Positions 16,750 through 56,057 of a stretch of 64,000 bases of DNA are shown in pieces. The notes under the pieces were generated by a model. It worked only from the letters and a program-made list of their open reading frames with translations. It ran no database searches and was not told where the DNA came from. Position 1 is the first letter of the stretch. Each line of letters opens with the position of its first letter. The DNA is from a phage. The DNA lies in NCBI GenBank assembly GCA_026066175.1, contig GCA_026066175.1_4721.1. One strand, written 5' to 3'. The position numbers and the translations under genes are program-made.

Positions 16750-19011
16750 TTACAATTCGAAATCTTCATCGATAACGCGTTGGGTTAGCACCTTGTCGCT
16801 GAAGAACTCCACCTTACGTTGATGGTATTTCCGATGTGCTTCAATCGACGTACACACCAGATACCAGAACGTGGGTGTCATACCCTCGAACTTCCCTTTC
16901 AGCTGACGTAGTCGACCTAACACCTGAATGTTACCAGTTCTCGACCCCATCGCTAACGTCATGAACGTCATCACCAAGTCAGGAAGATCGATTCCTGTAC
17001 CAGCCGATTTTACCGTTGTCACACTGATATCATTATCCAGTAACACCATGAAATCTTCTTCAGCGGTATAAGGACCTATCTCCAACTCAGGGATACGTTC
17101 ACTTAAGTAATGCGATAACGACTTGCACATATCAACGGTTGCACAATACACCAACATCTTCATGCCTTCCTGATATTGGTTCATGAAACCTTTGATAATA
17201 ACCGTATAGATAAAGTTGAAATAGGCGAGTTTGAGTTGCTTATTCTTCATGATAGACTGTTCGAATACCGTGTGAGAATAAGAACCTCCAAAGCCTTTGT
17301 ATCGGACTTTATCCGTACTGCGTAGTCGATACGTCACCGCATTTACCGCGATGTATTTCTTGTATTCACATTTCGCATAACGTGCTTCTTTCGGATACAT
17401 CAAATACAGCATCCGCTCGATGAACGGATCGTCAGACACCGCCGTTGCCGACAGATAAATGATTTCCGGAATATTCGCGTAACACTTCACTTTGAACAAG
17501 AAATGCAGAGCTTCGTGACATTCATCGTGGATTAACAATCCAATGCCTGTTTTCTCCCAGAACTCGACTGGATGGAAAACATAAGGTGCGACACAGTTGT
17601 TCTTTTCATAATCGGTTATATAACGCTGAAACATGTTCAGTGAGAATAACGCAATTTTGAAATCCAACTCACCTTGTTCTACCAACGTCTGAAATTCCAA
17701 CATGCTGTAACGAGGAATGTCGGGATGCGGTGGGTCAGACTGGGCTGTACCACGTATCTCGATAACATCACCTGGTTCCATACCGAAGAAACTTAGCAGT
17801 GAGCTACGCCATCCAGGCATGTACCTCGGTGACAGAATGATGCCCGTCCGTACACCACGTCGGAAGGTGATCTCCTGCGACATTGCGGTGTTGTGCGTGA
17901 CGATATGGTCTTTAATAACATAAAGGCTTTCGTCGTTGTCCACCGTGATGCAACGTGCCTTCGCTTTCACCGTCGGCACGATGCCGCCAATCGCTAAACC
18001 AGGAAGCGTGTTAACGGGAAGATCATCTGGAATCTCAATGCCGTCAGGAATAAGCTTAAGCAAATCGGAATGGTAAATTAATGTCTCCATCGTGTAACTA
18101 TTGATGGGGCATTTATACGCGATTCCCCCTAACCGATAAGCCAACTCCCAGACCTCGGTCATTATCTGCGAATCGGTGGTTCTGACCGCAAGGTGAGCCC
18201 ACCCTTCTTCAACACGCAGCACGCAACGATCTTTGATGAGTTCTCTGAAACGATCAAGACCCACGAGTTCTTTCGGTTCGTAAAGTCGGATTCTTACCGG
18301 ACGAGATCGTGACGATCTGTCATTAAGACGTTCCATGATTTCACTCGTGCTGAGCACCTTGTCAGGATCCGTGCATTGCCAGAGATGATCACCACACGCT
18401 TCAACCATTCGTCCATCTTCAAAGAAGACAGCGTAAAGCTGAATATCGTCATGATCAAAGATAGCAGTTACGTTCGTCGGTAAACCATCCGCGCCGATGA
18501 CCTCATCACCCACCTGGAGCTCACCAATCGGCTTCCAACCGCTTGGAACCTTAACGGGTGTATGGAGAGCCAATGCTTTCCCAGACCCCGTGCCTGCGGT
18601 GTTTAGGCTCATTCTGAAAGGGGTATCCTTACCCCCATCCATGTACTCCAACCATTCTTGCTGATCTTCACGCCACGGAAACTTCCAGTTCTTCACAAAC
18701 TCCACTTCCTTACCTGGAACCGGATCGTGGTAAACGATTTCCAACCACTCCTTTCGAATTCCTCGAGAAAAGATAAAATCCAAAAACGACTTCAGCTGTT
18801 CACGAAGTAAGTAGACCTCGCTATAATCGCTTCTTGCTGCGGCGTAGGTGTTGATGGTATCGGTGACCATTCTCCGTGTACGAGGGTCGCGTCGTTTCCG
18901 TAGATGCAAACAACGGTCTCGAAGGTAATGGCCAATCAAATGGGCAAATCGAAGTCCGTATCCGCTCAGCTTCATGCCATGCGAGAAGACGTCGATACGA
19001 GCTAACTTCAT
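16750..19011 (-). CDS. DExH-box helicase with an intein-like insertion in the Walker A motif
   Basis: GTGSGK is followed by a 229-residue insert ending VTHN, then T; removing the insert gives GTGSGKT. Downstream DExH box LLIHDECHEAL. Confidence 0.55.
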   Translation of the reverse strand: MKLARIDVFSHGMKLSGYGLRFAHLIGHYLRDRCLHLRKRRDPRTRRMVTDTINTYAAARSDYSEVYLLREQLKSFLDFIFSRGIRKEWLEIVYHDPVPGKEVEFVKNWKFPWREDQQEWLEYMDGGKDTPFRMSLNTAGTGSGKALALHTPVKVPSGWKPIGELQVGDEVIGADGLPTNVTAIFDHDDIQLYAVFFEDGRMVEACGDHLWQCTDPDKVLSTSEIMERLNDRSSRSRPVRIRLYEPKELVGLDRFRELIKDRCVLRVEEGWAHLAVRTTDSQIMTEVWELAYRLGGIAYKCPINSYTMETLIYHSDLLKLIPDGIEIPDDLPVNTLPGLAIGGIVPTVKAKARCITVDNDESLYVIKDHIVTHNTAMSQEITFRRGVRTGIILSPRYMPGWRSSLLSFFGMEPGDVIEIRGTAQSDPPHPDIPRYSMLEFQTLVEQGELDFKIALFSLNMFQRYITDYEKNNCVAPYVFHPVEFWEKTGIGLLIHDECHEALHFLFKVKCYANIPEIIYLSATAVSDDPFIERMLYLMYPKEARYAKCEYKKYIAVNAVTYRLRSTDKVRYKGFGGSYSHTVFEQSIMKNKQLKLAYFNFIYTVIIKGFMNQYQEGMKMLVYCATVDMCKSLSHYLSERIPELEIGPYTAEEDFMVLLDNDISVTTVKSAGTGIDLPDLVMTFMTLAMGSRTGNIQVLGRLRQLKGKFEGMTPTFWYLVCTSIEAHRKYHQRKVEFFSDKVLTQRVIDEDFEL
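17890..18576 (-). other. Putative intein (229 codons, Ala1 ... His-Asn, +1 Thr)
   Basis: Hint-like blocks GELQVGDEVIGADG near the N-terminus and CITVDNDESLYVIKDHIVTHN at the C-terminus; sits exactly inside the P-loop. Confidence 0.5.
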
Positions 19012-21047: not shown

Positions 21048-21122
21048 ACAGTGTATTCATTCCGTTGGAATTTACTCCGGGAGTCCCTTCCCTTAGGTTA
21101 TATAGGTGTTAATATATCTCGG

Positions 21123-21608
21123 TTATCCTGCTTTCTTCTGAAGGCTATAAGGATCCATCGCATCGGAGCGGTCGGCAACGATGGTAAGAATGAAGCCTTT
21201 TATCTGTCTCACTTCGGTAACCCGGAGTCCCCTATCGTTACGATAAACATTTTCTTCGCCGACCAGTTTTGGTCGAATAACATAAACCCCATCAACGAAC
21301 GGAAACGTTGAATACGGATAAATACCAATACGAATAATATTCGGATGATCACCTCGAGGGTCACGTCCAAACACATCAACTCTACCGTAAATCGTGCCGT
21401 CCGCACCTTCCACTTCAATAAGGTCGTTGCGAATATCCTGAAACAGTTGTTCTAAGGTCTCTACGGGATATGTATAAGCGACGCCTAATGCAACATCCTC
21501 AATGGTCTTAACGCTAAATCCGTTAAGCCAAATAATCCGATCATCTGTCCATGTTTCTTCATACGCTGTTAATCCGTCGCCGTATATGTTGGCGTGTGCT
21601 ATCTCCAT
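21123..21608 (-). CDS. Hypothetical protein (161 aa)
   Basis: ORF on the gene strand. Confidence 0.4.
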   Translation of the reverse strand: MEIAHANIYGDGLTAYEETWTDDRIIWLNGFSVKTIEDVALGVAYTYPVETLEQLFQDIRNDLIEVEGADGTIYGRVDVFGRDPRGDHPNIIRIGIYPYSTFPFVDGVYVIRPKLVGEENVYRNDRGLRVTEVRQIKGFILTIVADRSDAMDPYSLQKKAG

Positions 21609-22572: not shown

Positions 22573-22601
22573 CCTCCTCCCACCGCACGGGCAGGAGGAG
22601 G
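22573..22601. terminator. GC-rich hairpin (cctcctcc / ggaggagg)
   Basis: Inverted repeat in the intergenic gap. Confidence 0.45.
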
Positions 22602-22612
22602 CGTAATATGCG

Positions 22613-23080
22613 TCAGAAAGGAAGACGATCTTTATATTCTAACAACGTATCTTCGAAGCAGGCTGCTAGCTCAGACTGCAATTCGATTCGACCTTGTTCA
22701 CCAAACAACTCCAACAGCATCAATCCACGCGCTGTTTTCGTTGCGACCTCTTCACAAATACAAAGGTCGTGTGCAACGTCATCACCAACATCCTTACGTA
22801 ACTGTGCTGCAATGGGCTTAAGATTGCCGTCCTCGTCGTATTCGTCACGAAACGCATCATAAGCCGCATCAATGTTCGCCGTCCGCGTCAATCCTTCGGA
22901 ATCTCGCCAGTCTCGATAGAGTCCAAGCAGACGATTGTGATTCTTCGTCTTGACGTTAGGTGCTGGAAGATTGCGCAATAGATGCGGAGTAATCAATGCA
23001 ATCACGCTGTCTGAATGATCCATATCTACCTCGTTAGCTTTCGCAATCATCCGCATCGATGATCTGACCACCAGCAACAT
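22613..23080 (-). CDS. Hypothetical protein
   Basis: ORF on the gene strand; start uncertain because it overlaps the 3' end of the upstream gene. Confidence 0.35.
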   Translation of the reverse strand: MLLVVRSSMRMIAKANEVDMDHSDSVIALITPHLLRNLPAPNVKTKNHNRLLGLYRDWRDSEGLTRTANIDAAYDAFRDEYDEDGNLKPIAAQLRKDVGDDVAHDLCICEEVATKTARGLMLLELFGEQGRIELQSELAACFEDTLLEYKDRLPF

Positions 23081-25202
23081 TCAACTGGTGATACAATATC
23101 CTCAACGCACGGTTACCCCCAATGGGATACTTCTCGAAGTTGGTCGCAATCGGAATCGCAGAGGGTTTGTCGGTTGCATAGATGCTTTCCGTGATGCTAT
23201 CCACCTGTTTCGGGTTGTTCGCGTAATCCATGAATACGCTTGCGAACCATCCACCGGCGAAGGCGGTGACTTCGCGATGTTCAGATTCACCACAATAACG
23301 TGTTGGTTGCTCTTTACCAGGAGAACTGTACTTATCACTGTTGCTGAGTTTCGACGGCAAACCATGTGCTTGCAGTTTAGGAATACCTACCGCAGACCAA
23401 TCGTTTGCTGTCTTCTCCAACATCATGATGTACGTATCACCAATCGCAATATCGTTCTTGGTGGTTCGCCATTGACCAGAACGACCACGATAGCGTACAG
23501 GGCCTTTCTTCAACGGGAACTCTCGAATCAGGTTCTCCATACGCTCCGAGCCTGCTGCGATACTGTCTGTCGGGATATAGACTTCTGTACCATGGCGTTG
23601 TACGTAACGTAGATGGTCCCATTTATCGTCATCTGTGATACAATGTTTCTCAACAACCTGCTCCACAAACTCAGGACTAACGATATAGTAGTAACGCATC
23701 AATGTGTTCCATGCGGTTTCCAGATCGCCTGCATCCATTACCGGTTTCAGTTCACGCATGATCTGGTCGCCAACACCATTGATATACGGTGCGTTAACAC
23801 GACTTAAACTCATCCTTTTAATTACCGTGCTGTCGTCGAACATAAAGTCCGCAACATTCCCCCATTGGTCTACGGGCATCTCGTCATCTTCCATGATATC
23901 CGTTACGACGAATTTATCACCCGCCATACCGGTAAATTTAAATCCGATACCAGGGACCACATCGTAGGTATACGTGATGGTCACACGCCAGTCATCAAGA
24001 TTCTCCTTACGATAATCACGGGTCGGCAACACATGACGTAGCTGACCGTTCGGATTGCGAATGTCAATACCATGCTCAGCATCAGCGAGGTTCAACCACC
24101 ACATCACCGTCTGATGATGTCTGATGGGTGTACCAGCACGTTCACGTTCGTATTTACGCACCGCATCCTGAATACGGGTATACAGCAGACCGATGGCGTT
24201 TTCATATTTCAGGAATTGACGATACGGAGGACGCATCTTCTCTTCCATCATAATCGCACGCTCGCGGGCTTGACATCCAGAACGACGATGTCGATCGCTG
24301 ACAACATCGATATCCGTTACACGCGCATTCGGCTCAGCGTAAGTGAGATCATCGTAAACATAATCCACACGCTGAAGATTGCACGTCATCATGTCAACGA
24401 CGCTGAGGATAGGATCGATTTCGCGTGTTGCTGCAAGTAACCCATCTTTACGAATACGCTCACCGTTCTCGGGTATTGCTTGATATACCTCGTCATCACC
24501 GTAGAGATTGATTGGGTATCGCGATTTACCTGATGTAATTGTTCGCTTCTCAATACCGGTACTGGTGAAATGCTTCAATACACCACGACGAGCAACACCA
24601 CCATCTTCAATACACTGGTAGAAGCTACCGAAACACACCTTGCAATCGCGACCGTAACCCCACTCGCGTGTTTCTTGATTGATCGCTGGGCTTTCCATCA
24701 AACGAGAATATCGCGGTACAATCTGGCCTCGACGAAGGGAATGGAACAAGTTGGTTGGTCGAAAACGGAAACCGTACTGCTGATGCATGATGTGATGCTC
24801 AGGCACTTCAAGCAAGCGTAGCTCGTGACGGTTACCATCCTCTTGGTTTTCATACAGCACGTAATGCATCGTGTTTGTTTTGATGCTGTTTGCTGTATGT
24901 CCTGGTTGAAACCGCGGAATGATATCTATGATGCGAGATTCAACTGGAAACTCTACTGACCAAGTGTTCTGTCCGTACTGGTATTCAATCCCCGTCGTTA
25001 ATCGGGACGGCTTCGCATCTTTGATAACCAACGCTTGGCTAAGATGTCCACCAAACATCGCAGCGCGCTGTGCTGAGTTATAATGCAATAGCCCGTTAAG
25101 TCCAGTCCCTACACCCGTATACTCCTGTTTAATGGGAATGATTTTACCTTCAGCGATTGCCTGCTTCACAGATTCATAAAGAGGTTTTTCTTTATAATGC
25201 AT
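23034..25202 (-). CDS. Multisubunit RNA polymerase beta-subunit-like protein (C-terminal beta motifs)
   Basis: FTGMAGDKFVVTDIMEDDEMPVDQWGNVADFMFD resembles the beta GDKxAGRHGNKGV...ED.P...G.P.D region. Start trimmed from 25367 to ATG 25202..25200, preceded by AGGAAG. Confidence 0.5.
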   Translation of the reverse strand: MHYKEKPLYESVKQAIAEGKIIPIKQEYTGVGTGLNGLLHYNSAQRAAMFGGHLSQALVIKDAKPSRLTTGIEYQYGQNTWSVEFPVESRIIDIIPRFQPGHTANSIKTNTMHYVLYENQEDGNRHELRLLEVPEHHIMHQQYGFRFRPTNLFHSLRRGQIVPRYSRLMESPAINQETREWGYGRDCKVCFGSFYQCIEDGGVARRGVLKHFTSTGIEKRTITSGKSRYPINLYGDDEVYQAIPENGERIRKDGLLAATREIDPILSVVDMMTCNLQRVDYVYDDLTYAEPNARVTDIDVVSDRHRRSGCQARERAIMMEEKMRPPYRQFLKYENAIGLLYTRIQDAVRKYERERAGTPIRHHQTVMWWLNLADAEHGIDIRNPNGQLRHVLPTRDYRKENLDDWRVTITYTYDVVPGIGFKFTGMAGDKFVVTDIMEDDEMPVDQWGNVADFMFDDSTVIKRMSLSRVNAPYINGVGDQIMRELKPVMDAGDLETAWNTLMRYYYIVSPEFVEQVVEKHCITDDDKWDHLRYVQRHGTEVYIPTDSIAAGSERMENLIREFPLKKGPVRYRGRSGQWRTTKNDIAIGDTYIMMLEKTANDWSAVGIPKLQAHGLPSKLSNSDKYSSPGKEQPTRYCGESEHREVTAFAGGWFASVFMDYANNPKQVDSITESIYATDKPSAIPIATNFEKYPIGGNRALRILYHQLNVAGGQIIDADDCES

Positions 25203-25233
25203 AGGACTTCCTATTATCGAATTGAGGTACGTC

Positions 25234-25587
25234 ATGTCTAATACGCCCCTGAACGACTTTCTTAAGACAAACCCCGATGACCTCATCCACAACCTTGATT
25301 TCAGGAACGTTGTTGAGATGCATCTGGAATATTTCAAAAATGCCGGTTTGGTTTCTACGATAGACATACCACCCGAACGCGCCTACGAATTCGATGGTAA
25401 CTTTTATGGATTATGTCGGGTTATGCTTGGCGAAGGCAGTGAACCTATGCACTGGGTTACCCTAAGAATCAACGGTTATCGTGATCCTACGGAATACACC
25501 GCCGATGTCCTAACGATGAAGATTGTCGATTCAAGCGCCATCAACACGTTAAAACAGCAATATCGCACAATCCACTACAGCGCTTAA
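25234..25587 (+). CDS. Hypothetical protein
   Basis: Track start 25222 is TTG; first ATG at 25234 is preceded by GAGGT. Followed by a hairpin. Confidence 0.4.
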   Translation: MSNTPLNDFLKTNPDDLIHNLDFRNVVEMHLEYFKNAGLVSTIDIPPERAYEFDGNFYGLCRVMLGEGSEPMHWVTLRINGYRDPTEYTADVLTMKIVDSSAINTLKQQYRTIHYSA

Positions 25588-25592
25588 GATAA

Positions 25593-25621
25593 CCCTCCCA
25601 CGGCGTAAAGCGGCGGGAGGG
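25593..25621. terminator. GC-rich hairpin (ccctccc / gggaggg)
   Basis: Lies between convergent genes. Confidence 0.45.
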
Positions 25622-25653
25622 CATTTATGCCGTCGTTCGATGCTTTTAGCGCA

Positions 25654-26934
25654 TCAGAAGCGATTTACAGGACGACCTGTCCACGCGTTCAGGATAGTGT
25701 TACGTTCCATCTCAGCGCGACGACGCAGCCCGTTCGGCGTCTGCGGTGCTGGTGGCATCCCCCATCCTGCAGGTTGCGCACCCATGCCTGGCCAAGCCCC
25801 AGTATTGAACATCGTACCGTTACGTTCCGCTACACGGTTCATCAGCATATCGAACGTACTATTACCTCCTGGTTGGTTAGCACCTCCTTCCCACGGATTA
25901 GGTTGAACCGGCGCGGTCTTACCTAACAGGTTATCGATGACATTACCTGATGCAGTAGGACGTGGTTGCATACCTTCATGTGCGGCGGCTGATGGATTTG
26001 GCTTAACCGTAGGTTGCGGTCGACTGTTGAGCGTTACACCCATGTTGTATTTCGCTGGAGGAATCTGTCCGCGATGCTGATTAATCGGTTCAAAGTCCTC
26101 AACCCAGGTAACGTCGCAATACCCATTCTCTTTACCGTCGTACTTATCACCAAACAGTTTGATGAGGTTATTCAACGGTTCCATCAGCTTAGCGAAGCTG
26201 TGGATAAGGCAATCGAAATACGGTGCATGCGGATCGCTTGACCCAGCGTTATACGTTTCACTGACTTCGCTTGCGTGCGGGATAACATACTCAACCAGGT
26301 TTCTCAGCATGTTAAGATCTTTCTTGGAGATCTCAACACCACACCAGTACGTTTTCTTATCTTTCGTGCTGATGTGTTCTTCTTCCATGAACGGGAAAGT
26401 AACAACGGCAACACGGGTCATCTTCTTACCCATGTAGGTTGCACCAGTACGACGAAGATAGATTTTAGACAGCGTATACGGTGTATCACGTTTCAGCCAA
26501 ACGGTAACCAGTTTACCCAGGGTCGTTAACGTCTTATCGCTGGCGTCCGCAAGGATGTTGAAGAACTCTTTCTGCTTCGGACCGAAACGTTTTGCTTCTT
26601 TCGGGTTGATCGCGGTTTCAACCATCCAAATCAGCATGGAGCACAGCGTAGCGTTAAAACGGACAACCATCGCACGACGCAGGAACTGCAGCACTTCCGA
26701 TTCGCCGTTCATCACGTCTTCACTTAACGGATGGAACAGCACACGTTCGGCAAGATGGCTTCCTGTACGCACTTCGGTAACCGGCATCAGCAACGGCATG
26801 CTTTCCACGGTAGCGGCAACTGCAACAACCTTACCATCACCATCTGTAAAGCGGTACTCTAACTCATGAGCATCGTTTTCAAAATAGTTAACGCTTTGTA
26901 GCGCTTTACGATAAGCTTCAATAAGCTTCGACAT
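25654..26934 (-). CDS. Hypothetical protein (426 aa)
   Basis: ORF on the gene strand; Pro/Gly-rich C-terminal tail. Confidence 0.45.
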   Translation of the reverse strand: MSKLIEAYRKALQSVNYFENDAHELEYRFTDGDGKVVAVAATVESMPLLMPVTEVRTGSHLAERVLFHPLSEDVMNGESEVLQFLRRAMVVRFNATLCSMLIWMVETAINPKEAKRFGPKQKEFFNILADASDKTLTTLGKLVTVWLKRDTPYTLSKIYLRRTGATYMGKKMTRVAVVTFPFMEEEHISTKDKKTYWCGVEISKKDLNMLRNLVEYVIPHASEVSETYNAGSSDPHAPYFDCLIHSFAKLMEPLNNLIKLFGDKYDGKENGYCDVTWVEDFEPINQHRGQIPPAKYNMGVTLNSRPQPTVKPNPSAAAHEGMQPRPTASGNVIDNLLGKTAPVQPNPWEGGANQPGGNSTFDMLMNRVAERNGTMFNTGAWPGMGAQPAGWGMPPAPQTPNGLRRRAEMERNTILNAWTGRPVNRF

Positions 26935-26962
26935 ATTGTATTTCCTTTTCTTTTACGACAAT

Positions 26963-26983
26963 GGTCCCCCATGACAGGGGACC
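26963..26983. terminator. Hairpin (ggtcccc / ggggacc)
   Basis: Inverted repeat in the intergenic gap. Confidence 0.4.
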
Positions 26984-26989
26984 TATGGA

Positions 26990-28576
26990 TTAGAAGTTGC
27001 CTTTGGTGGTTACAGCATCAACCAGGTTGAACAAATCGATGCTCAGCTTATACACTTCCTGCTGGCTACGGTTAAGCAGCGGGCTATAAGCAGAAGGGTT
27101 GATGTTCGGCATGGTGTATGGAATCGGGGCAGAGCCATCAACGCTGATCTTGAACTGGCTATCCAGGAACAGGTTAATTGCGCCACTTACCATAACCGCA
27201 TTCGGGTTGTTCCCTAACATCGACGGTAAGATGTTGATGATCATATCGGAACGCATCTGCTCAGCAGCACGGTTACAGTCGTAGCCTTTAATGAACGGTA
27301 CCGCATCGGTAACCGCAACCGCCCACTGGCCTGGCATGATGCCCAGCTCTGGGTGACCGTGGTTGTCTGCAATGAAACGGAACGATTCCAGCATGCGATA
27401 CGTCATCGCCGCAGGCATCATGGACGCCAGCGAGGAGCAATAGATCGTTGGATAATCGATCACATCCCAGCTTTGGCTATCCGTTGGCATCCAACCGAAT
27501 TCGGTGGTTGCTGATGTACCGCGACGGGCTTCCACATACGGGAACAGCGTCAGGACATCACGGATATGTTCACCGAAATGCCGTTTCATTTCACCCCAGC
27601 TCAGGCTACCGTTAAACGAAAAGCCCTCATCACGCATGATCTCATTGAACATCGTGTGCGCAACCAGCGGTTGTTCACGGACGTATTGAGAAGCCTCAAC
27701 GTAAACATCCTCGTTGTTGGCCTCGCCGGGATGAGAACCTAGCTCGAAGGTCTGACGAACGGTACCCACGCTATCGAACGCTTTCTTCAGATAGATGGTT
27801 GGGATATTTGTATCGATGCTGGCGGGTTTTACCTTCTCTGTTGCAAAACACAGCGCAGCATCCATACCACGAACAACCGGTTCCTGTTGTGGTCGGTATG
27901 TTGAGTGGTTCACGACGTCCGCATACATCGGGTCGAACTGTTGCATCACGTTCTGCATCGAAGGATCCATGAACTGATTGTCCATACCACCATTACCGAG
28001 CCAACGTGCAGTCGATGCGTAGGTCAGCGTATCCTGCACACGGGTACTGAACTGAACGTCGTTGTTCATTGGGTCATACGCCCCGGTAAGCAGATGGATA
28101 GCATCTTGAGGAGCTGCACGTACAACCTGTTTACCGAACATATCAACGGTGGTTGTTTCCAGCACGATAATGACGTTGGTGAAGAAGAACTGCAATTCGT
28201 TCGGTAGATCTTGTACGCGGGTTGTGTATGCATCCAACGGAACAGAATAATCGGTGTATCCAGACACGTAATGAACACGTTTGCTTCCTGGAGCTAACGC
28301 AACCGATTCTTCTGCTGCCATCATGAAATGGAAACGACGGGTACCCCAACCATTAGCAATCTCTGAAACCCCTTCCGGCTGTGCGGTTTGCTCTAACATC
28401 CCGGCAGCCAGTTTATTGATCGCTGATGGTGTTGTCGCGGTGCCGAATCGCGTTGTGTTAATAAACTCTTCCAGGCTATGCATGCTGTCAGCGTGGAACT
28501 GAATTGGACGACGGTGCACATTGTTGTATGGTGCGGTTTCAACCATCAGGATTTCACGAACATTCATCGATACCAT
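26990..28576 (-). CDS. Hypothetical protein (528 aa)
   Basis: Long ORF with consistent coding composition. Confidence 0.45.
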   Translation of the reverse strand: MVSMNVREILMVETAPYNNVHRRPIQFHADSMHSLEEFINTTRFGTATTPSAINKLAAGMLEQTAQPEGVSEIANGWGTRRFHFMMAAEESVALAPGSKRVHYVSGYTDYSVPLDAYTTRVQDLPNELQFFFTNVIIVLETTTVDMFGKQVVRAAPQDAIHLLTGAYDPMNNDVQFSTRVQDTLTYASTARWLGNGGMDNQFMDPSMQNVMQQFDPMYADVVNHSTYRPQQEPVVRGMDAALCFATEKVKPASIDTNIPTIYLKKAFDSVGTVRQTFELGSHPGEANNEDVYVEASQYVREQPLVAHTMFNEIMRDEGFSFNGSLSWGEMKRHFGEHIRDVLTLFPYVEARRGTSATTEFGWMPTDSQSWDVIDYPTIYCSSLASMMPAAMTYRMLESFRFIADNHGHPELGIMPGQWAVAVTDAVPFIKGYDCNRAAEQMRSDMIINILPSMLGNNPNAVMVSGAINLFLDSQFKISVDGSAPIPYTMPNINPSAYSPLLNRSQQEVYKLSIDLFNLVDAVTTKGNF

Positions 28577-28577
28577 T

Positions 28578-30164
28578 TTATTTTTTTCCTCTTAAATTTA
28601 CTACATGTTCATTTAATCGAACAACTAATTGCACAAGCTGCTGACGGATATCTGCTGGGCAAAGCATCAATCCTTTACGATCAGCGGGGACTTTCTCAAG
28701 GATTTCAGGGCCTGCTGCTGAAACATCCCAATCCCATTCACAAAACGCATCGGCTACCATGTTAATACCGACAACCGGTAAAGTTGTACGTTCATCTTCA
28801 TACATGGCATGCGGATACAATTTATTGACGGTAATAATCTCCTGTGGTTTTAATTGGTGGATAATCTGATAAACATCATCACGTTTAACCTGGATGCCTA
28901 CGGTTAATGCGGCCAGTTGAGGGAAACCCCAATGGTCTAACAAGCATGCCGCAATCGCTAACGCTTTTGCCTGATGCACGGCTTCAATCGGTGCCAGACT
29001 TCTCGCCGGAAGATGGCTGTCCAACAACCATTGCGCCAGTGCTCGGCATCCGCGATTGATCGGTTTTAACTCAACGGTATCATCATGCTTCGCGTAGGTG
29101 TATCCGTCGTAACGTTTTGCGATACGCGCATACATGTCTTCAACCTTACCGTACGGTGCGGTTTCATCAACGTCGTGTAACACCCGTTCCATCTGGGTAA
29201 GATAAGCGATATCAAGAATGAGTACACGTGGTGAACGTTTATCTTTCACCATCAGCGCATCAATCACACCTTGGCTATCTTCATCTTGCGCATTCCCTCG
29301 CGGAGTTTTCTCACGTATGGGTCCGCTGAAACGACGTTCCGTACAGAGGTTATTCACATAACTGAAAATCAGCGTCACCAGATGCGTACAACTGACCAAC
29401 ACCCCATCTTTAACGACGGGCTGCACGGCTTGGTCCAAATCACGTACCGCAAGGCGTCTGACGATGGCTTGCGAACGCAACCAACCCGGCACTTTTTCTG
29501 TTGACATGTAATCCACGGTCATCGACAACGTGATCTTTTTATCGCCTGTCTGTGCACGGATATAGTCTTCCAGTCGGTCATAAGCTGCGATATCATGAAT
29601 GCGTGTTTTATACATCAGCGACATCGCCACTTCTTCTTTACGTACTGTCCCGTACGTTTTCCCCGCATCAATCAGGAACTCAGCCCAGATAGGCACCATC
29701 AAACGAACGTAAATCGCTAACGCGGTTAACTCAACATAATCGTTTCGTAAATAGGTTTTCTCTGGGATATCATCCTCGCCTAATGTCGTTTTCATATCCG
29801 GCGGTAATTTTACCCAACCTGGGGTATTACACAACGCCAGAATCTCTTCGTATACAACAGGTTTGTAGATTTCACCAACAGCGCGGCTCAGCTCCTCCAT
29901 TTGTTGTTGTGGCGCAATGTAATTATCCATCGCTTCACGTGCTTTAACGAACCCTTCAAAGATATCATCGGTTCGACGTGGGTTCTTTTGCTCTATCCAG
30001 GCAAGATACTTGTTAATCTCTCGCATCTGATTGCTGGCCATATCCCCATCGATCTTGATATACCCTTGGCCTGAAAATTCCACGGTACGTCCATCACGAT
30101 GTTTGATAAGATAATGGTCTAGCTTTTCTTTGCCTTGCGTCGTAATGACGGGCACAATGTGCAT
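28578..30164 (-). CDS. Hypothetical protein (528 aa)
   Basis: Long ORF; promoter motif copy D lies about 55 nt upstream. Confidence 0.45.
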   Translation of the reverse strand: MHIVPVITTQGKEKLDHYLIKHRDGRTVEFSGQGYIKIDGDMASNQMREINKYLAWIEQKNPRRTDDIFEGFVKAREAMDNYIAPQQQMEELSRAVGEIYKPVVYEEILALCNTPGWVKLPPDMKTTLGEDDIPEKTYLRNDYVELTALAIYVRLMVPIWAEFLIDAGKTYGTVRKEEVAMSLMYKTRIHDIAAYDRLEDYIRAQTGDKKITLSMTVDYMSTEKVPGWLRSQAIVRRLAVRDLDQAVQPVVKDGVLVSCTHLVTLIFSYVNNLCTERRFSGPIREKTPRGNAQDEDSQGVIDALMVKDKRSPRVLILDIAYLTQMERVLHDVDETAPYGKVEDMYARIAKRYDGYTYAKHDDTVELKPINRGCRALAQWLLDSHLPARSLAPIEAVHQAKALAIAACLLDHWGFPQLAALTVGIQVKRDDVYQIIHQLKPQEIITVNKLYPHAMYEDERTTLPVVGINMVADAFCEWDWDVSAAGPEILEKVPADRKGLMLCPADIRQQLVQLVVRLNEHVVNLRGKK

Positions 30165-30210
30165 AACAACCTCTTTTCGCGGTTCCCTGTTAAACGTTTT
30201 CTATAACGCC

Positions 30211-30248
30211 ATCAAGGAGGTAATATAAGCGTGAATAATTTTGGATTC
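30211..30248 (-). promoter_or_regulatory. Candidate phage early promoter, copy D
   Basis: Plus-strand ggaggtaatataagcgtgaataatt matches the motif shared with copies A to C. Confidence 0.35.
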
Positions 30249-30366
30249 CTGCTGAGTCATCGCTCAGCATGCAAGGCATCCCGCCGAAGCGAGACACCTT
30301 GCACTAACGGAAAATACTCGCGTTACCTTCTGAATCGAAGACCCAGAATGCGATACTAAAGCATCA

Positions 30367-31155
30367 TTAGAATGCTAAGCCATCAAAGGCGATTGACGGA
30401 TCATCATCGTCATTTGCGCTAGGCGCGTCCCAACGCGTGTCAGGGGCTGCTGGAGCCGAACTTGAGGCATTAGAGTTACCGTTGTACTGGCCGTTACCAG
30501 CATTACGGTTACCGCCACCGTTGTTATTGTTACGATTGTAGCTGTTGTTACCATTACTTACGCTACGGCTTTCACCGTCAAAGTTGGTTGCGAGGATGCT
30601 TGGTAACACCGCACGATGAATACGTACGAATTCCAGCGCACAAAGCGGAGAAACAACACCGATCTGCAAAGGTTGTCCAGACTCATCAACCAAAGCGTGG
30701 AAACGCGGTGGTTTGAACACGAATTGGATGTTCGGTTTTTGGTATGCGGTTACCGCGATGTACACCGAACCATCGTCATTCTTACCGACCCACGTTGTGC
30801 TCTCGGTAATCTGCTTTTTCTTACCTGGGTTATTGCGATCATCGATAACCTTTTCGTTCTTCATCGCAAAGCGTTGACCAGGTTTACCCTTAGCAACCTG
30901 CTCAAGGATCGCCAGTAGGTTATAGAACGCGTATGAACTCATACGTGCCCAAATGCTTTCAGCACGACCCTGTTGGTCTTTACGTCCTGTATAAACCGTA
31001 ATACGTGGTTGATTTTTAGCGACGCTAATTTTCAATGATGGAATTGAATTACCGCCCTCAACCTTCTCGTCCGCCCACAGTTTCCAGTTGTTGTCGTCAT
31101 AAGCCGTAGGAATGATATTTCCTTGTGGTTTACTGCCCGAATTCCAATTGCTCAT
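30367..31155 (-). CDS. Putative ssDNA-binding-like protein with Gly/Asn-rich linker and acidic C-terminal tip
   Basis: C-terminus ...NGGGNRNAGNGQYNGNSNASSS...DDDDPSIAFDGLAF resembles the disordered linker and acidic tail of bacterial and phage SSBs. Confidence 0.3.
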   Translation of the reverse strand: MSNWNSGSKPQGNIIPTAYDDNNWKLWADEKVEGGNSIPSLKISVAKNQPRITVYTGRKDQQGRAESIWARMSSYAFYNLLAILEQVAKGKPGQRFAMKNEKVIDDRNNPGKKKQITESTTWVGKNDDGSVYIAVTAYQKPNIQFVFKPPRFHALVDESGQPLQIGVVSPLCALEFVRIHRAVLPSILATNFDGESRSVSNGNNSYNRNNNNGGGNRNAGNGQYNGNSNASSSAPAAPDTRWDAPSANDDDDPSIAFDGLAF

Positions 31156-31229
31156 TTTCAGCCTCGTTACGTAGTGTGAATCAATTTCTGACTTCAGATG
31201 ATAGTCAATATTAGTTAAAAATTACAGCC

Positions 31230-35485: not shown

Positions 35486-35525
35486 TATCACAGAAGTAAT
35501 ATAGCCGTGAAAATTATTGTATTAA
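35486..35525 (-). promoter_or_regulatory. Candidate phage early promoter, copy B
   Basis: Plus-strand cagaagtaatatagccgtgaaaattattgtatt is nearly identical to copy A. Confidence 0.4.
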
Positions 35526-37304: not shown

Positions 37305-37683
37305 CTGTTTGTCGACTATATCTTCATCTTCATTGCGAAGAGACTCTCGTTTGGGTTTGTGTTTAACAAAGCCTACTCTACTCAACATCGCGTCTTTCGA
37401 TAGTCTGTGAGCACACATCTTAACGAATATTCGTGGGTTCCTACAGACAGGTGAATATTCTTGTTGAGATGCTTCGCTGCGGATTATTCCCGTCCTACCT
37501 CTTTTACCATACCCAGTTCATTACGCTGGCCCTCATCGATGTCACCATGATGAGTTGGTGTGTAGTCCGATTACAGAAACTTCCCGTCAATTAGAGAGTT
37601 TTAACTATGCTCCTGTTACCAGGAACCAGATCCCGACGGCATCAATAAATCAACGTAAGTTATTGATTTAATTGAAAAAACTG
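37305..37683 (-). ncRNA. Group I intron 2 (about 379 nt)
   Basis: Minus-strand core elements AAUUGACGGGAAG (P), AAUAAUCCGCAGCG (Q), GCUCACAGACUAUCG (R) and GAAGAUAUAGUCG (S). Preceding exon ends in U, intron ends in G, and an internal GAUCUG can pair with exon CAGAUU. Confidence 0.6.
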
Positions 37684-37702: not shown

Positions 37703-38071
37703 CTTCGATATGGTTCGCTACGCCATACCCGCACATACGTGCAGCTTACGTCTTTCACGTAAGAAGAGACTATATCTTTCACCCTCAGCTTTACCTGTTA
37801 GGGGCTCCCATTTCGGCGGTCGTTTGACCGGTGGTTTCCCACGCCGCTTGGCCCTAACGCCCGTAAGCGATAGTCGTTGAGCACATCTCCGTTCTGGAGA
37901 CTTCGCTGCGGATTCCCCAATCCTTACTGCTTTTACCGTACCTGAATGATTAGTTCAGCCCCATGCTCTGTTCCCAGGCATGGTTGGTGAGCAAGGCTCT
38001 AAGTAGGTTCCCGCTATTAGAGAGTTCCTCGTGATAGCATTACTGTGTCACTGGGCCTAATGACCCTTTCA
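37703..38071 (-). ncRNA. Group I intron 1 (about 369 nt)
   Basis: Minus-strand core elements AAUAGCGGGAAC (P), GGAAUCCGCAGCG (Q), GCUCAACGACUAUCG (R) and GAAAGAUAUAGUC (S). Proposed P1 pairs exon AUGAUCU with GGGUCAU across a UGAAA loop; intron ends in G. Confidence 0.55.
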
Positions 38072-39305
38072 AGATCATCACGCTTAACCCGATGGTATTA
38101 TCCTGCGGGTCGCGTTTAACCTTGGTGATTTCAAGACATTGGTTACTGCTACGGTCAAGTGATGGATTTCGAACAAAGCCACACACAATCCCATCGAACG
38201 GTGTATCAGCAATAAGCTCGTCATGCAGCTCGCTCATCATCGGATGATAATTGCGGACATGCTCTGCAACGAACGCACGGGCTGCTCTTGGTGAATAACC
38301 ACGATGGAATAACTTGGATTGGATATGTTCTTTATTGGTTAGTGTAAATGGTGCGTACGGAAAATGCAGATGATAATAACGATGGTTTGCTGTTATCGAA
38401 CTGATGACCGTACGTGTGGTGAATGGATGTAATGTACCTAATATGTTCTTACGTGTGATCCCTTTCTTCTTACCAATGAACTCATCGAAAATCGCCGAGT
38501 GATACTGCAACAGCTTCAATTGCACTTTCGCCATCCAGTTTTCTTTCTTTCTGGCGCTTAGTGGCGTGGTTGGATGATAGATGCTATTCAATGTTCCGAT
38601 GGCGTCTATCGCACCTTCCATTTTGCTGTCAGCGTAACGTCCTGTTGGCGTGTTCTCGATCACGAACATCATGGCTGCAGGAAAGCTGATGTACTGACTG
38701 AAGAATTTATCCCGATGAATACGGATGAATTCGCGTAGCGTATCAACCTTCTCCATGTTCTTCGGTCCACGTAGTGTTGGGCCTTTATACAAGATCTCCA
38801 TGATACGATCGAAGTTCTGTATAAAGCTATTTATACCGCGTCGTATTCCGAATACATCGAATTGCTGTTCCAGATAGTTCTTAAGTTCGATCGGTCGTTT
38901 TACGTTCGGACGGTAACTGGCATCAATGAGCCACGTCATCGTTTCAAAGCTTTTGATATTCAACTCGCTTGCCAGCACGAGATGGACCAACGGGTTAATG
39001 AACGCATCGATACCTTCCGGTACGCGCGCCCAGACCGTTGAACGAATCTCTTGTTCTGCTGGATAAGTGACAACCGTTTTACAGTTCGGGCACACCGTCC
39101 CTAATAACTCACCGCGATTATAGAAACCACAACCGCATTGCGGGGTGATATCCAAGGTATCGCTAGAGTAAACACGGGTGATGAAACTGTTTAATTTCTT
39201 CTTCTCTTCCACGACCTTCGTATCATAATCGTTCAACAATATCGGCGTAAAAGGAAGTTCTGCGAGCTGTCTATCGAAACTGACGATATCGAGCATGATG
39301 GCCAT
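38072..39305 (-). CDS. RNA polymerase beta-prime N-terminal subunit, exon 1
   Basis: N-terminal zinc-binding CGCGFYNRGELLGTVCPNC and RNPSLDRSSNQCLE matching beta-prime RQPTLHRLGIQAFE. The track ORF continues to a stop at 38040 through intron sequence (LKGSLGPVTQ). Confidence 0.6.
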
Positions 39306-39397: not shown

Positions 39398-41296
39398 TTA
39401 GAACAGGTTGAATGCCCCGCCCATGCCGTTACCGCCCACATTCGGACGATCGTTACGTGCGTAGATGTTACCGCTGATGGTACCCAGACCACGAGCACGT
39501 GCTGCCATGTTACCACGAACAGCGGTACCTGCCAGATGCTGGATGTTCTCAGGACGGATGGTGAAGCCTGCTTCAGCAGCCGCTTCAATCAGTGCCTGCA
39601 GCGCCAGCGGATCGAAATCATAACGCATCGCCCAGCCAGTTTGTTCCCAGCTACCAGACAGAACGCGGTCGATGATTTCGTGACGAGCAACCACACGCTG
39701 AGACATCGACATATCGGTACGGTCGAAGCTGTCTTCCCAAGCTTCTACGGTATCCGGGTTAGTGATGTTCATCATGTACAGATCGTCCATATCACGAATA
39801 TCGTGACGGTTACCGTCCTGGTGGTTGTAGTGACCCAGCGGGATACGGTTACCGGTCGCGTAGACCAGCGGTGAGCCGTACGGATATTTCTTGCTGAAGC
39901 AACCCAGGGTAACATCATCGAACGCACGGAAGAGGGCTTTGTAGCCTTCGGAGTATTCCTGTACGTCCCCTTCAACATTACCCGAGAAGATCTTCTCAGC
40001 CGCCGGGATCATACGCAGCAGCCAGCTGTACTCACCTTCTTCTGGTACGTCGATAGAGATCAGCAGAGACGGATACAGAACCTGTTGCAGGAACTTGTAA
40101 ATCTGCTCGTTGGTTTGCGTAGACAGATCCAGCGGTGCAGTCACTTCAGGATCCAGCACCATCGCCAGAGCACCTGGGTTATGCGGACCAATACCACGAG
40201 CTGCGTTGCTGATTAAAGACTGCGCCCACGCCATGCCGCTGTTCAGCGTAGCGATGGTACCAATCAGACCCAGCACGAAGCTGTTCGGCGTGAACGCATC
40301 CAGTTCCAGCGGATACATGCTGGTCATTACGTAGCGCGGTTGGTACTGTACAGTTGGCGGTACCGGATAACCGTTAACCAGAACAGGACCTTGCTGGAAG
40401 GTCGGGTTCTGCGGGCTGTAGGTCAGATCGATATAACCGGTGGATGCAACCAGACGCTGCTGGCTATCGTAATCGCCCATCGCTTGACGGATGCGGTTAG
40501 AGATAGTTACAGTAATGTCGGAGCGTACCGGGTTACCCGCGATATCGCTATCCTGCATGCCGCTGGTGTTATACTGAACGCTACTGATCGGCTGATCGCT
40601 TGCCATCATACCCAGGTTGAACTGAGGCAGGCCCAGTCTGTCAGCAAAACGCATTTCGGTTGCCGTCTGGATCGCGTTATCCGCTGCGGAAAGCAGGGTG
40701 GTTGCCAGATGCGCAGATTCAGCAGTGATTTCATTGGTCACAACAGCCAGACCAGCGATACGTACCGTACCGTTAGCTTTACCACCGATAGCCGCATACA
40801 TCGCTGCCATGACTTCGTTGATGAACGTGCCGTTCAGGTTATCCACCCAAGTACATGGTACCAGGATGTTACCGTGAGGACCACGTTCTTCACGACGTGG
40901 CAGCGGAGCCAGGCCAGCAACCAGCGGAAGGACGTAACCGAAGAAGTGGTTATGATCACCCACTTTTACACCGCTCATCACAACCAGAGTCGGATACGGT
41001 ACGCTGTACTGATTCGGGTCAACCGCAACAAAGATGAAGTCGTCTTTGAACTGGGTATCTTCCAGATATTTCTCCATCAGACGACGGAGATTCAGTACCT
41101 GCTCGGAGCCGGTATTACGGCTGATACGACGGCTCAGTGTACGGTTAATCGTACGCATCGTATGAGTTACTTTAGGACGGTCAGCAAAATCTGCAGCGGT
41201 TTCGACCGCCTCGTTAGCATGCTGCGCCGTGCGGGTTTCAGCCACGCGGATGTCTACGTTATCGTTACCGTTATTGTTACGTACGTCTAAGCCCAT
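39398..41296 (-). CDS. Candidate chimallin-like phage nucleus shell protein (632 aa); major capsid protein not excluded
   Basis: Size of about 70 kDa, high-expression-like codon choice, its own promoter motif and terminator, and proximity to a PhuZ-like tubulin and phage RNA polymerase genes. Confidence 0.45.
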   Translation of the reverse strand: MGLDVRNNNGNDNVDIRVAETRTAQHANEAVETAADFADRPKVTHTMRTINRTLSRRISRNTGSEQVLNLRRLMEKYLEDTQFKDDFIFVAVDPNQYSVPYPTLVVMSGVKVGDHNHFFGYVLPLVAGLAPLPRREERGPHGNILVPCTWVDNLNGTFINEVMAAMYAAIGGKANGTVRIAGLAVVTNEITAESAHLATTLLSAADNAIQTATEMRFADRLGLPQFNLGMMASDQPISSVQYNTSGMQDSDIAGNPVRSDITVTISNRIRQAMGDYDSQQRLVASTGYIDLTYSPQNPTFQQGPVLVNGYPVPPTVQYQPRYVMTSMYPLELDAFTPNSFVLGLIGTIATLNSGMAWAQSLISNAARGIGPHNPGALAMVLDPEVTAPLDLSTQTNEQIYKFLQQVLYPSLLISIDVPEEGEYSWLLRMIPAAEKIFSGNVEGDVQEYSEGYKALFRAFDDVTLGCFSKKYPYGSPLVYATGNRIPLGHYNHQDGNRHDIRDMDDLYMMNITNPDTVEAWEDSFDRTDMSMSQRVVARHEIIDRVLSGSWEQTGWAMRYDFDPLALQALIEAAAEAGFTIRPENIQHLAGTAVRGNMAARARGLGTISGNIYARNDRPNVGGNGMGGAFNLF

Positions 41297-45955: not shown

Positions 45956-46398
45956 CCTGTGTTTCTCTTGTTAGGCGTATGTATTAACGACGCCACCGTC
46001 TTTTCTGGATCATCCCATAATGCGCGACGAAAACTGGACACCACCATAACGGTAGGATAGATCTGTACAACCTCCCAACCGTAACGATGTGCATTCGTCG
46101 TGCGCCCAACATTGAACAAACACAATTGATTCAAGAAACAGAGCTGCATCTTCGTAAACAATAGCGTGTCTTCACGTTTCACGTAACCGAGGATATAGGC
46201 GTTCTCGAACGCTTCACGTGCTAAGACAGGACGGTTAAGATAACGTAGCGACAACACCAACAACGCGGTGATACGCAACGGATCTTCGGGTCCTTTTAAA
46301 TCATTCAGCTCATTCTGCAACCAATCCGGAATCGCCACCGTTAGGCGATAGGTGTCTGTTCCACGATCAACCACATTTAATGTTGAAAAAGGCAACAT
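45916..46398 (-). CDS. Hypothetical protein
   Basis: ORF on the gene strand; start uncertain. Confidence 0.35.
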   Translation of the reverse strand: MLPFSTLNVVDRGTDTYRLTVAIPDWLQNELNDLKGPEDPLRITALLVLSLRYLNRPVLAREAFENAYILGYVKREDTLLFTKMQLCFLNQLCLFNVGRTTNAHRYGWEVVQIYPTVMVVSSFRRALWDDPEKTVASLIHTPNKRNTGWKNTPLSAVAML

Positions 46399-46990
46399 AC
46401 CCGTGAATTCCTTCTAACTCGAGGTCGTTCTCGTCGGTTTTCGGTAAAAGTCCGTTAGCTGTCAGCATCCTTGTCATCGCGCCATCGAAGCACGGGAAGA
46501 TAAGGTTAATAGTTTCATTAATCGCATCAACGTAGCTATACACCGCTTCGAAGTAATCGCCGTCATGATCGATACTCACCAGATCCTGGCATAGGTCTTC
46601 AGCAATCGTTTCATATACCGGCGGATACCACGAATGAAACGGTCGCTGCATACGTAACGACCAATACTCATACGTCGTATACTGAAGCACGTCATAGGCT
46701 GATACGTTAATGCGGTCAAAGAAAGCATACGTGTCCATGTGTTGGTACAACATCGCCAACACGGTTTCCAAACACACAGCTATCCGCACGCCATCATCTT
46801 TCCCGTTAAGGAAATTCGGTTTCTGCCGGTAACGCACGAATGCCGATGGCCTTGATTGTACTATTCCACCACCAACCATAATGTCATACTCGTATCTAAC
46901 GTGAAATTGAAATGCCACCAATCTTCCACGCGTGGAATCCAGGTGCGGAGGATCTGATGAACCTCGCTTCGCATCACGGACAACCGACAA
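46367..46990 (-). CDS. Hypothetical protein
   Basis: Overlaps neighbours in other frames; start uncertain. Confidence 0.35.
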   Translation of the reverse strand: MSVVRDAKRGSSDPPHLDSTRGRLVAFQFHVRYEYDIMVGGGIVQSRPSAFVRYRQKPNFLNGKDDGVRIAVCLETVLAMLYQHMDTYAFFDRINVSAYDVLQYTTYEYWSLRMQRPFHSWYPPVYETIAEDLCQDLVSIDHDGDYFEAVYSYVDAINETINLIFPCFDGAMTRMLTANGLLPKTDENDLELEGIHGYVAFFNIKCG

Positions 46991-55973: not shown

Positions 55974-56057
55974 GAAGGTAATGTAGGTTTATTTTAATCT
56001 CCATTTCGCGATGATATGACAGTCTTTATTACGTTTACCATCTGAGGGAGCATGCTC

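Follow-up and report, generated by a model that had tools for sequence, protein, structure and literature searches.

A conserved junction of hairpins and a probable early promoter between chmC and an RNA polymerase subunit gene in a Goslar-like jumbo phage

Phages of the phiKZ type transcribe their genomes independently of the host enzyme. Among jumbo phages that have two multisubunit RNA polymerases, early operons are preceded by a highly conserved AT-rich motif of ~10 nt whose centre is near -10, and in every phage examined experimentally this motif is the early promoter of the virion polymerase; the virion polymerases of the chimalliviruses are multisubunit enzymes that recognise such an AT-rich, -10-like element. 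More specifically, phiKZ early promoters consist of an extended -10 box together with a T-rich motif located upstream of -19, the consensus given in a recent engineering study being tatattaaaaaaaatttaagatgTATATTACaaatgtg, and they have been stated to drive the genes for subunits of the non-virion RNA polymerase (nvRNAP). They include the promoter of PHIKZ054, which encodes the nuclear shell protein and counterpart of chimallin, and for which a primary start site has been mapped. The phiKZ nvRNAP itself is reported to depend on gp68 for promoter recognition. At the other end of transcription units, 61 phiKZ terminators have been located experimentally, in which a hairpin is followed by TTATKYYGT (Putzeys et al. 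2024, PMC10914365).

The locus described here is a spacer of ~200 bases (30165-30366) that lies between chmC and a homolog of PHIKZ068 in the window, the whole 64,000-nucleotide stretch of DNA analysed. Over ~4 kb, the locus shares 88% DNA identity with Escherichia phage Goslar (Chimalliviridae), a jumbo phage which serves as the E. coli model among nucleus-forming phages, and the 132-196 kb region of Goslar is colinear with the window. The nearest sequence found was the metagenomic contig JACXXQ010000003.1, with 99.4% identity over the locus; a scan of genome contigs recovered no relative. Beyond the gp68 homolog come homologs of phiKZ gp69 and gp70 and an RNAP beta-like protein (Table 1), so that the block as a whole shows synteny with phiKZ gp65-gp71. 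The PHIKZ068 homolog showed 99.6% identity to Goslar gp175. The gene upstream of the spacer had been labelled SSB-like in the original prediction, and this label was not borne out. Its product is the ortholog of Goslar gp176, identified in the literature as ChmC, a protein with a predicted Whirly fold that prefers RNA over DNA in binding and is required for infection. Its identity to phiKZ gp67 is 33% (E 7e-20), and a Pfam search of the protein matched no family and found no OB-fold SSB domain. The resemblance to SSB proteins is confined to an N/G-rich linker and an acidic C-terminal tip, which explains the earlier label.

Table 1 Features of the chmC-gp68 junction and of the genes and signals around it (window coordinates)
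Feature	Position	Strand	Basis or remark
chmC (ortholog: Goslar gp176 / phiKZ gp67)	30367..31155	-	stop TAA 30369-30367
Small hairpin GAUGC-UUUA-GUAUC directly after stop (weak)	30352..30365	-	folding
hp0, UUCUGGGUC-UUC-GAUUCAGAA	30328..30348	-	-8.2 kcal/mol sense vs -2.9 antisense
Bulged hairpin UAACG.CGA-GUAU-UUC.CGUUA (weak)	30305..30325	-	centroid structure
hp1, GUGCAAGGUGUCUCGC-UUCG-GCGGGAUGCCUUGCAU, 16-bp stem, three G.U pairs	30269..30304	-	folding
AUGCUG box, straddling hp1 end and hp2 start	30265..30270	-	terminator-tail match
hp2, GCUGAG-CGAUGA-CUCAGC, abutting hp1	30251..30268	-	folding
Early-promoter motif, copy D	30210..30249	-	38.5 bits on Goslar matrix
Motif sub-element: A-tract	30244-30236	-	
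Motif sub-element: TTCACG	30235-30230	-	
Motif sub-element: core TATATTAC	30227-30220	-	
Motif sub-element: TGA	30214-30212	-	
Predicted transcription start, conserved TGA, 6-8 nt past TATATTAC core	30212..30214	-	inferred
5'UTR hairpin GGCGUU-AUAGAA-AACGUU	30193..30210	-	one compensatory change
Shine-Dalgarno AAGAGG (30175-30170) and ATG (30164-30162) of gp68-like gene	30162..30175	-	sequence
PHIKZ068 homolog, fifth nvRNAP subunit	28578..30164	-	PDB 7ogp_B / 9rjs_B, E ~6e-28
gp69-like	28576-26990	-	homology to phiKZ gp69
gp70-like	26934-25654	-	homology to phiKZ gp70
RNAP beta-like	25367-23034	-	homology
First canonical terminator downstream of copy D, then ATGCTTATGCTG	22601-22573	-	
Chimallin, preceded by motif copy	39398-41296		PDB 7SQT, E = 0

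Read along the minus strand, the spacer carries in order the chmC stop codon, three small hairpins, the two hairpins hp1 and hp2, an A-rich stretch, the promoter motif, a 5'UTR hairpin, AAGAGG and the ATG of the gp68-like gene. The two hairpins and the motif that had been placed on this strand within 30165-30366 are thus all present. The order claimed for the hairpins has to be reversed: gcaagg..ccttgc, the core of hp1 (30302-30271), comes first, gctgag..ctcagc (hp2) second and the motif third, the original prediction having listed both hairpins in plus-strand order. The three smaller hairpins near the stop codon and the 5'UTR hairpin (30210-30193) had been missed. We read the spacer as the junction of two transcription units, in which chmC would end at hp1/hp2 and an early promoter would start the unit of the nvRNAP subunit, and we put the probability of this reading at roughly 0.6.

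The promoter half of the junction was examined with the 18-mer TTCACGCTTATATTACCT, found at 30235-30218 on the minus strand. When up to three mismatches were allowed, this sequence occurred five times in the window, on the minus strand only, against 0.25 occurrences expected. The 8-mer TATATTAC alone was not enriched in the window (4 found vs 2.4 expected), and the signal therefore resides in the extended motif. We derived a 40-nt weight matrix from 12 copies of the motif in Goslar. It identified six sites in the window, four strong and two weak, and gave no hit in shuffled sequence; the strong sites are in gene orientation and precede minus-strand start codons by 13-60 nt. Goslar itself has ~12 clear copies of the motif, all on the minus strand and all in gene orientation, and the consensus for the Goslar group is tAat.cAaaa..TTTCAcG.cTAtATTACcTa.gTGA, with a TGA that is conserved among the aligned copies. 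The copy in the spacer was rightly named copy D, as it is the fourth when counting along the minus strand. Motif copies precede both the PHIKZ068 homolog and the chimallin gene in the window, two genes of a class that has to be expressed early, as their phiKZ counterparts are; upstream of TTCACG, copy D has CCAAAATTA and the chimallin copy GAAAAAAAT.

In phiKZ, the TATATTAC core is likewise present upstream of PHIKZ054 and directly upstream of PHIKZ068. That the motif represents the Goslar-group version of the phiKZ early promoter for the virion RNA polymerase is a well supported assignment as judged from these comparisons. The phiKZ core has been retained in a phage with proteins only ~24% identical, and its retention across distant relatives suggests that the way in which the virion RNA polymerase recognises its promoters is ancient and conserved. 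A full-text literature search with the string TATATTAC returned irrelevant papers only. A host sigma-70 promoter was not supported and was rejected, and recognition by sigma-70 is not expected given the independence of these phages from the host enzyme.

The hairpins upstream of the motif were then considered as folded RNA. hp1, which starts 62 nt past the chmC stop codon, has a predicted folding energy of -26.5 kcal/mol (z = -7.1), and none of 200 shuffled sequences folded as well. hp2 reaches -10.2 kcal/mol (z = -3.2), and the 131-nt part of the 3'UTR at 30366-30236 has a z-score of -5.5. The antisense strand of hp1 folds at only -15.7 kcal/mol. This strand asymmetry, which hp0 shares, arises from G.U pairs; it speaks for a function at the RNA level, in the sense transcript, and against a DNA palindrome. 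Hairpin promoters are known for the virion RNA polymerase of phage N4, and the position of hp1 and hp2 directly upstream of a promoter would also suit elements that act as DNA, whether as a cruciform, as an N4-like hairpin promoter or as a protein-binding palindrome within the promoter. We consider such a role very improbable: in DNA, and likewise in the opposite strand, the three G.U pairs of hp1 turn into mismatches, hairpins of this sort are absent from the other promoter copies or replaced there by canonical terminators, and the multisubunit virion polymerases of chimalliviruses use an AT-rich, -10-like element. The N4-like form of the idea was rejected on the G.U asymmetry and on the absence of hairpins at other copies. 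Strong structure upstream of promoters was not a general property (p = 0.17) and was limited to the 4-5 copies that come after terminators. A hairpin at the 5' end, as found downstream of copy D, was not significant as a general feature of early transcripts among the 12 Goslar copies (p = 0.13).

Conservation was assessed in the orthologous spacer of eight distinct Goslar-like genomes with 86-99% identity to the window over the locus. Variable columns number only 3 of 87 in the stretch made up of hp1, hp2, the sequence between the elements and the promoter, and none of 21 in the ribosome-binding region, against 50-65% of the four-fold degenerate columns of the four flanking genes in the same genomes. 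Motif copy D is invariant. hp1, which occurs once per genome, was identical in the Goslar-like loci retrieved for it; in the alignment of the eight genomes a single one of its 36 columns varies, and the change turns the first pair from G-U to A-U. In the relatives, the stem of hp2 is invariant and its loop shows a G to A change, and the loop of hp0 is changed from UUC to GAA or AAU. The hp0 stem has a G-U to A-U and a C-G to U-G change, with one A.C mismatch in the relative L008. The weak hairpin directly after the stop codon has a G-U pair in the window that is G-C in Goslar, and the 5'UTR hairpin shows a compensatory change, U-A in the window being C-G in Goslar.

RNAalifold analysis of the Goslar-group 3'UTR detected two-sided covariation in none of 51 pairs, so that structural support within this shallow clade consists of stability, selection and strand asymmetry. 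On these grounds the elements of the spacer are real, non-random, under strong purifying selection and favoured on the sense strand. A long-range helix between the 3'UTR and the promoter, also proposed by RNAalifold, was rejected, as 5.5% of random genomic 25-mers pair equally well with the promoter segment. An Rfam search of the spacer matched no family; its best hit, istR, scored 20.5 bits where the gathering score is 45.

Such strong constraint could in principle reflect a small coding gene hidden in the spacer, and a GTG-initiated ORF of 42 codons is indeed present on the plus strand at 30231-30359. This ORF is stopped prematurely in L028 and its differences are nonsynonymous, and all three sense frames contain several stops. 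The hidden ORF was rejected on these three points, and we give coding constraint next to no chance of being the explanation.

In order to place the junction within the family, we compared the spacers that precede the gp68 homolog in 14 further chimalliviruses. The upstream gene is followed by a strong hairpin in phiKZ, PhiPA3, Phabio, PS119XW, 201phi2-1, Moabite, FBKp24, SA002, RAY, PCH45, SPLA10 and RSL2. In the same 12 phages an early-promoter-like core, called by its likeness to TAyATyAy, precedes the gp68 homolog by 29-59 nt. For PhiPA3, PS119XW and RAY, with bulged hairpins that the perfect-stem finder under-calls, RNAfold structures were used. Specifically, in the five Pseudomonas phages phiKZ, PhiPA3, Phabio, PS119XW and 201phi2-1, the chmC stop codon is followed by one strong hairpin with a (U)AUGCC tail, and an A-tract together with (A/T)GAT(C/T)TATATTAC lies 30-35 nt before the start codon; in phiKZ (NC_004629) the hairpin is at 57907-57935 and TATATTAC at 57984-57991. 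In Serratia phage Moabite, an annotated terminator hairpin is followed by TTTCACGTATATATTACCTAATTGA, very near the Goslar-group consensus, and in FBKp24, SA002, RAY, PCH45, SPLA10 and RSL2 the strong hairpin is again followed by the TAyATyAy core. Of the remaining spacers, that of pEa_SNUABM_54 (59 nt) has the core and no hairpin, and that of LucasX a hairpin and no recognisable promoter core. hp2 is confined to the Goslar group among the chimalliviruses compared. The hairpin sequences at the gp68 junction are unrelated among phages, and unrelated to hp1. A hairpin has therefore been kept at this position through complete sequence turnover, and this is the best evidence obtained here for a function of the structure itself. 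Overall, the comparison shows that the arrangement of chmC, hairpin, early promoter and gp68 is ancestral to the family.

Whether the hairpins resemble the terminators of this phage was judged against two sets, the annotated terminators of Goslar and those hairpins between genes of the window that are strong. Both sets show a stem rich in GC, in many cases closed by a UUCG loop, and (T)TTATGCCGT directly after the stem, a signature that agrees with the phiKZ terminator motif. ATGC[CT] follows 9 of the 37 strong minus-strand hairpins of the window (24%), against a background of 2.3%. hp1 belongs to this class by two features, since it has a UUCG loop and ATGCTG after its stem; it is a stable, GC-rich sense stem-loop that comes after a stop codon, with the ATGCYG box at its foot. 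The AUGCUG box at the hp1-hp2 boundary is the counterpart of ATGCYG within the (T)TTATGCCGT tail. The hp1 stem is followed by GCTGAGCG, in which no TT(T) run is present, the box is partly base-paired within hp2, and a generic scan for terminators made of a hairpin and a T-run called neither hp1 nor hp2.

The same order of elements is found elsewhere. Three promoter copies of Goslar (43257, 49723 and 86696) are preceded by canonical terminators. At these three modules 23-26 nt separate the TATGCYGT box from the promoter, and in the spacer 27 nt separate the ATGCTG box from copy D. The region is thus an instance of a recurrent terminator-promoter architecture with what seems to be an atypical, T-poor terminator, and termination at hp1/hp2 is a plausible function. 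The original prediction, which had described a terminator followed by a promoter as a clean example of how transcription units appear to be delimited in this genome, holds for the promoter half, which is well supported, and for the recurrence of hairpin and promoter. It does not hold for a canonical terminator, and the example is not a clean one: typical terminators in this phage have a GC-rich hairpin directly followed by (T)TTATGCCGT, and at hp1/hp2 the T-run is absent, its place being taken by a second hairpin.

The missing T-run after both hp1 and hp2 is what would be expected if the hairpins were barriers for 3'-end protection or processing instead of terminators. Transcripts would then read through and be trimmed by exonucleases back to hp1/hp2, and the promoter would add early expression of gp68. 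Several stacked hairpins in a 3'UTR are typical of stabilisers, and read-through and overlapping transcription units are common in phiKZ (PMC10914365). However, hp1 shares its UUCG-capped stem and the ATGCYG box with Goslar and phiKZ terminators, and the orthologous hairpins of the Pseudomonas phages are followed by UAUGCC. We consider barriers of this kind possible but unlikely.

The same departures from the canonical tail bear on regulated forms of termination. Since hp1 and hp2 have no U-run and the AUGCUG box is half-buried in the second stem, the tandem hairpin might be a polymerase-specific or factor-dependent terminator, which stops one phage polymerase, or transcription at one stage, and lets the other read through. 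This idea is a distinctly speculative one. If true, the gp68 operon would switch from promoter-driven expression early to read-through later, and the AUGCYG box after the hairpin would be a sequence-specific termination signal for the sigma-less, multisubunit polymerases of chimalliviruses.

hp1/hp2 might also be a conditional terminator or a protein-bound RNA, acting on one polymerase only or through autoregulation by ChmC, and would then tune the chmC:gp68 ratio. The near-invariance of both hairpins in the eight genomes, the departure from the canonical tail with the box partly sequestered in hp2, and the location of the element in the 3'UTR of the gene for an RNA-binding protein would all agree with this. 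Yet canonical terminators at other places have stems that are just as invariant when the window is compared with Goslar, with variation in their loops, and the invariance of hp1 alone therefore needs no extra function; moreover, UUCG loops are intrinsically constrained, published work on ChmC saw no sequence-specific motif, and hp2 is confined to the Goslar group. Taking both sides into account, we find this explanation improbable.

We therefore return to the junction of two transcription units, for which the neighbouring genes suggest the following layout. A promoter copy at 35486-35525 precedes a single gene, after which a strong hairpin with a T-run is found at 34922-34885. From ~34800 down to chmC no early motif precedes the genes, so that their transcripts probably come from the nvRNAP or from read-through; this unit would close at hp1/hp2. 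Beyond copy D, no canonical terminator is met before the one that follows the RNAP beta-like gene (Table 1), so the early unit would carry the gp68-, gp69-, gp70- and RNAP beta-like genes, its part after the gp68-like gene probably spanning 22573..28576.

According to the mechanism that we propose, the sense transcript of chmC would end in a highly structured 3'UTR in which hp1 is dominant. hp1 and hp2 would most likely stop, or strongly reduce, transcription arriving from upstream, and may also stabilise the 3' end of chmC. Some 40 nt further, the polymerase that is injected with the DNA would meet a putative phiKZ-type early promoter made of the A-tract, TTCACG and the TATATTAC core, the virion RNA polymerase being expected to recognise copy D. 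Transcription is predicted to start ~6-8 nt past the core, near 30213, and would yield a leader of ~50 nt with a small hairpin and a strong Shine-Dalgarno sequence. The resulting mRNA would encode the PHIKZ068-like nvRNAP subunit, then the gp69-like, gp70-like and RNAP beta-like proteins. In this way production of the second polymerase could begin as soon as the phage has infected the cell, and would not depend on the upstream genes. The initiating polymerase, the exact start site and actual termination by the hairpins are inferred.

The junction is a conserved, ordinary regulatory element of a known kind, and the current understanding of transcription in these phages is unchanged by it. The points that are new, and modest, are the early-promoter consensus of the Goslar group, the survival of the phiKZ TATATTAC core in very distant relatives, the conservation of the junction across the family and the atypical, T-poor tandem hairpin. 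The ATGCYG box after the hairpin points to a feature common to the terminators of the Goslar and phiKZ groups. In practice, these signals could be used to annotate transcription units and to design expression cassettes for the engineering of Goslar-like phages.

Copy D and the early promoters of phiKZ have an identical TATATTAC core; both show an A-tract and then TTT upstream of it and a TG shortly after it, and the placement immediately before the gp68 gene is also shared. Another likeness is that tens of copies per genome lie upstream of early genes, among them those for nvRNAP subunits and chimallin. The phiKZ A-tract is AAAAAAAATTT, and the Goslar-group copies are likewise A/T-rich upstream. 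The two groups differ in the block between A-tract and core, which is TAAGATG/GAGATC in phiKZ and TTCACGGC/TTCACGCT in the Goslar group, and in the number of early promoters, with 28-32 copies in phiKZ and ~12 in Goslar. With respect to the intrinsic terminators of the phiKZ type, hp1 is alike in being a stable, GC-rich sense hairpin just after a stop codon whose stem has an ATGCTG box at its foot, and its UUCG loop is as in several Goslar terminators. It differs from them in having no TT or T-run on either side of the box, in its longer stem of 16 bp with three G.U pairs, and in the second hairpin that overlaps the box.

Among phages with their own RNA polymerase, the class boundaries of T7 are an example of terminator-promoter junctions. 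The locus described here resembles T7-like junctions in that a putative unit-ending hairpin is followed within tens of bases by a candidate promoter for a phage polymerase. In contrast to such junctions, this one involves multisubunit polymerases that have no sigma, and the site of transcription is a vesicle or the protein-walled phage nucleus.

At promoter copy D, the minus-strand early-promoter motif upstream of the PHIKZ068 homolog, three Goslar-like metagenomic genomes (L008, ~3923-3962; L026; L027) were found to carry a 40-nt insertion directly after TATATTACCT, at a site orthologous to position ~30218 of the window. The insertion is bordered by a TTACCT direct repeat. It places a new hairpin, CCTCTATGA..TCATAGAGG, where the transcript is predicted to begin, and a degenerate ATGTTACCT remains. 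It looks like the exchange or duplication of a promoter module. Weaker promoter-like copies were also present in the window (see table). The TACATTAC core of the 18.5-bit copy lies only ~5 nt ahead of the ATG of ORF 55395-55973; at that distance the mRNA would be leaderless, unless the start codon is mis-called or the copy does not function. A further, degenerate copy falls within coding sequence.

Coordinates of the features discussed in the window
Feature	Coordinates	Strand	Score or size
Weak promoter-like copy	55968-56007	minus	18.5 bits
Weak promoter-like copy	21087-21126	minus	23 bits
Degenerate promoter-motif copy	46390-46407		
Hairpin with box (example)	48975-48952	minus	
Hairpin with box (example)	44925-44898	minus	
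Hairpin with box (example)	36390-36364	minus	
Hairpin with box (example)	22601-22573	minus	
Hairpin with box (example)	9813-9794	minus	
Hairpin with box (example)	1789-1765	minus	
Hairpin, 17-bp perfect stem	14747-14788	minus	-27.6 kcal/mol
Group I intron-like element (Rfam Intron_gpI)	37305-37674	minus	49.1 bits, E 2.7e-11; just below gathering score of 50
Group I intron-like element (Rfam Intron_gpI)	37746-38083	minus	27.9 bits, E 6e-5
Helicase-like ORF	16750-19011	minus	753 aa
Insertion in helicase-like ORF	17884-18573		~690 nt
Spacer upstream of chmC	31156-31229		74 nt
C-terminal part of chmC	30367-30560		

The spacer upstream of chmC, the gene for a Whirly-fold RNA-binding protein, is strongly conserved (5/74 columns variable across eight genomes). 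The early-promoter motif was looked for in this spacer and was not present. A promoter of the middle or late class, used by the non-virion polymerase, may lie there, or else an element that acts in translation. The C-terminal part of ChmC itself consists of an N/G-rich low-complexity linker and an acidic tip, DDDDPSIAFDGLAF. The combination recalls the tip with which bacterial SSB binds partner proteins at its C terminus; ChmC, however, has a Whirly-type fold and a preference for RNA.

The RNAP beta'-like ORF 38040-39305 is closely followed downstream by two group I intron-like elements in tandem, in a region where Goslar has one annotated intron and an HNH/NUMOD1 homing endonuclease gene. The endonuclease gene is missing from the window (Goslar 167847-169281 has no counterpart), whereas the second intron-like element accounts for ~370 additional bases. 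Relative to Goslar, the helicase-like ORF carries an insertion that keeps the reading frame open, and its product is longer than the 524-aa Goslar gp164. A Pfam search found no domain; an intein, an extra domain and a fusion are the candidates.

A box, (T)TTATGCCGT, follows the hairpin and is common to Goslar-group terminators, both in the window (examples listed in the table as hairpins with box) and in the Goslar terminators compared (L002-L006). Another hairpin, with a 17-bp perfect stem, sits within a plus-strand gene, antisense to ORF 13949-15403, and is among the window's three most stable. Conservation of the box after the stem may mean that these phage polymerases terminate, or that 3' processing occurs, in a sequence-specific way. 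Similar to the box are the TTATKYYGT tail described in terminators of phiKZ and the UAUGCC tails that follow the chmC hairpin in the Pseudomonas phages.
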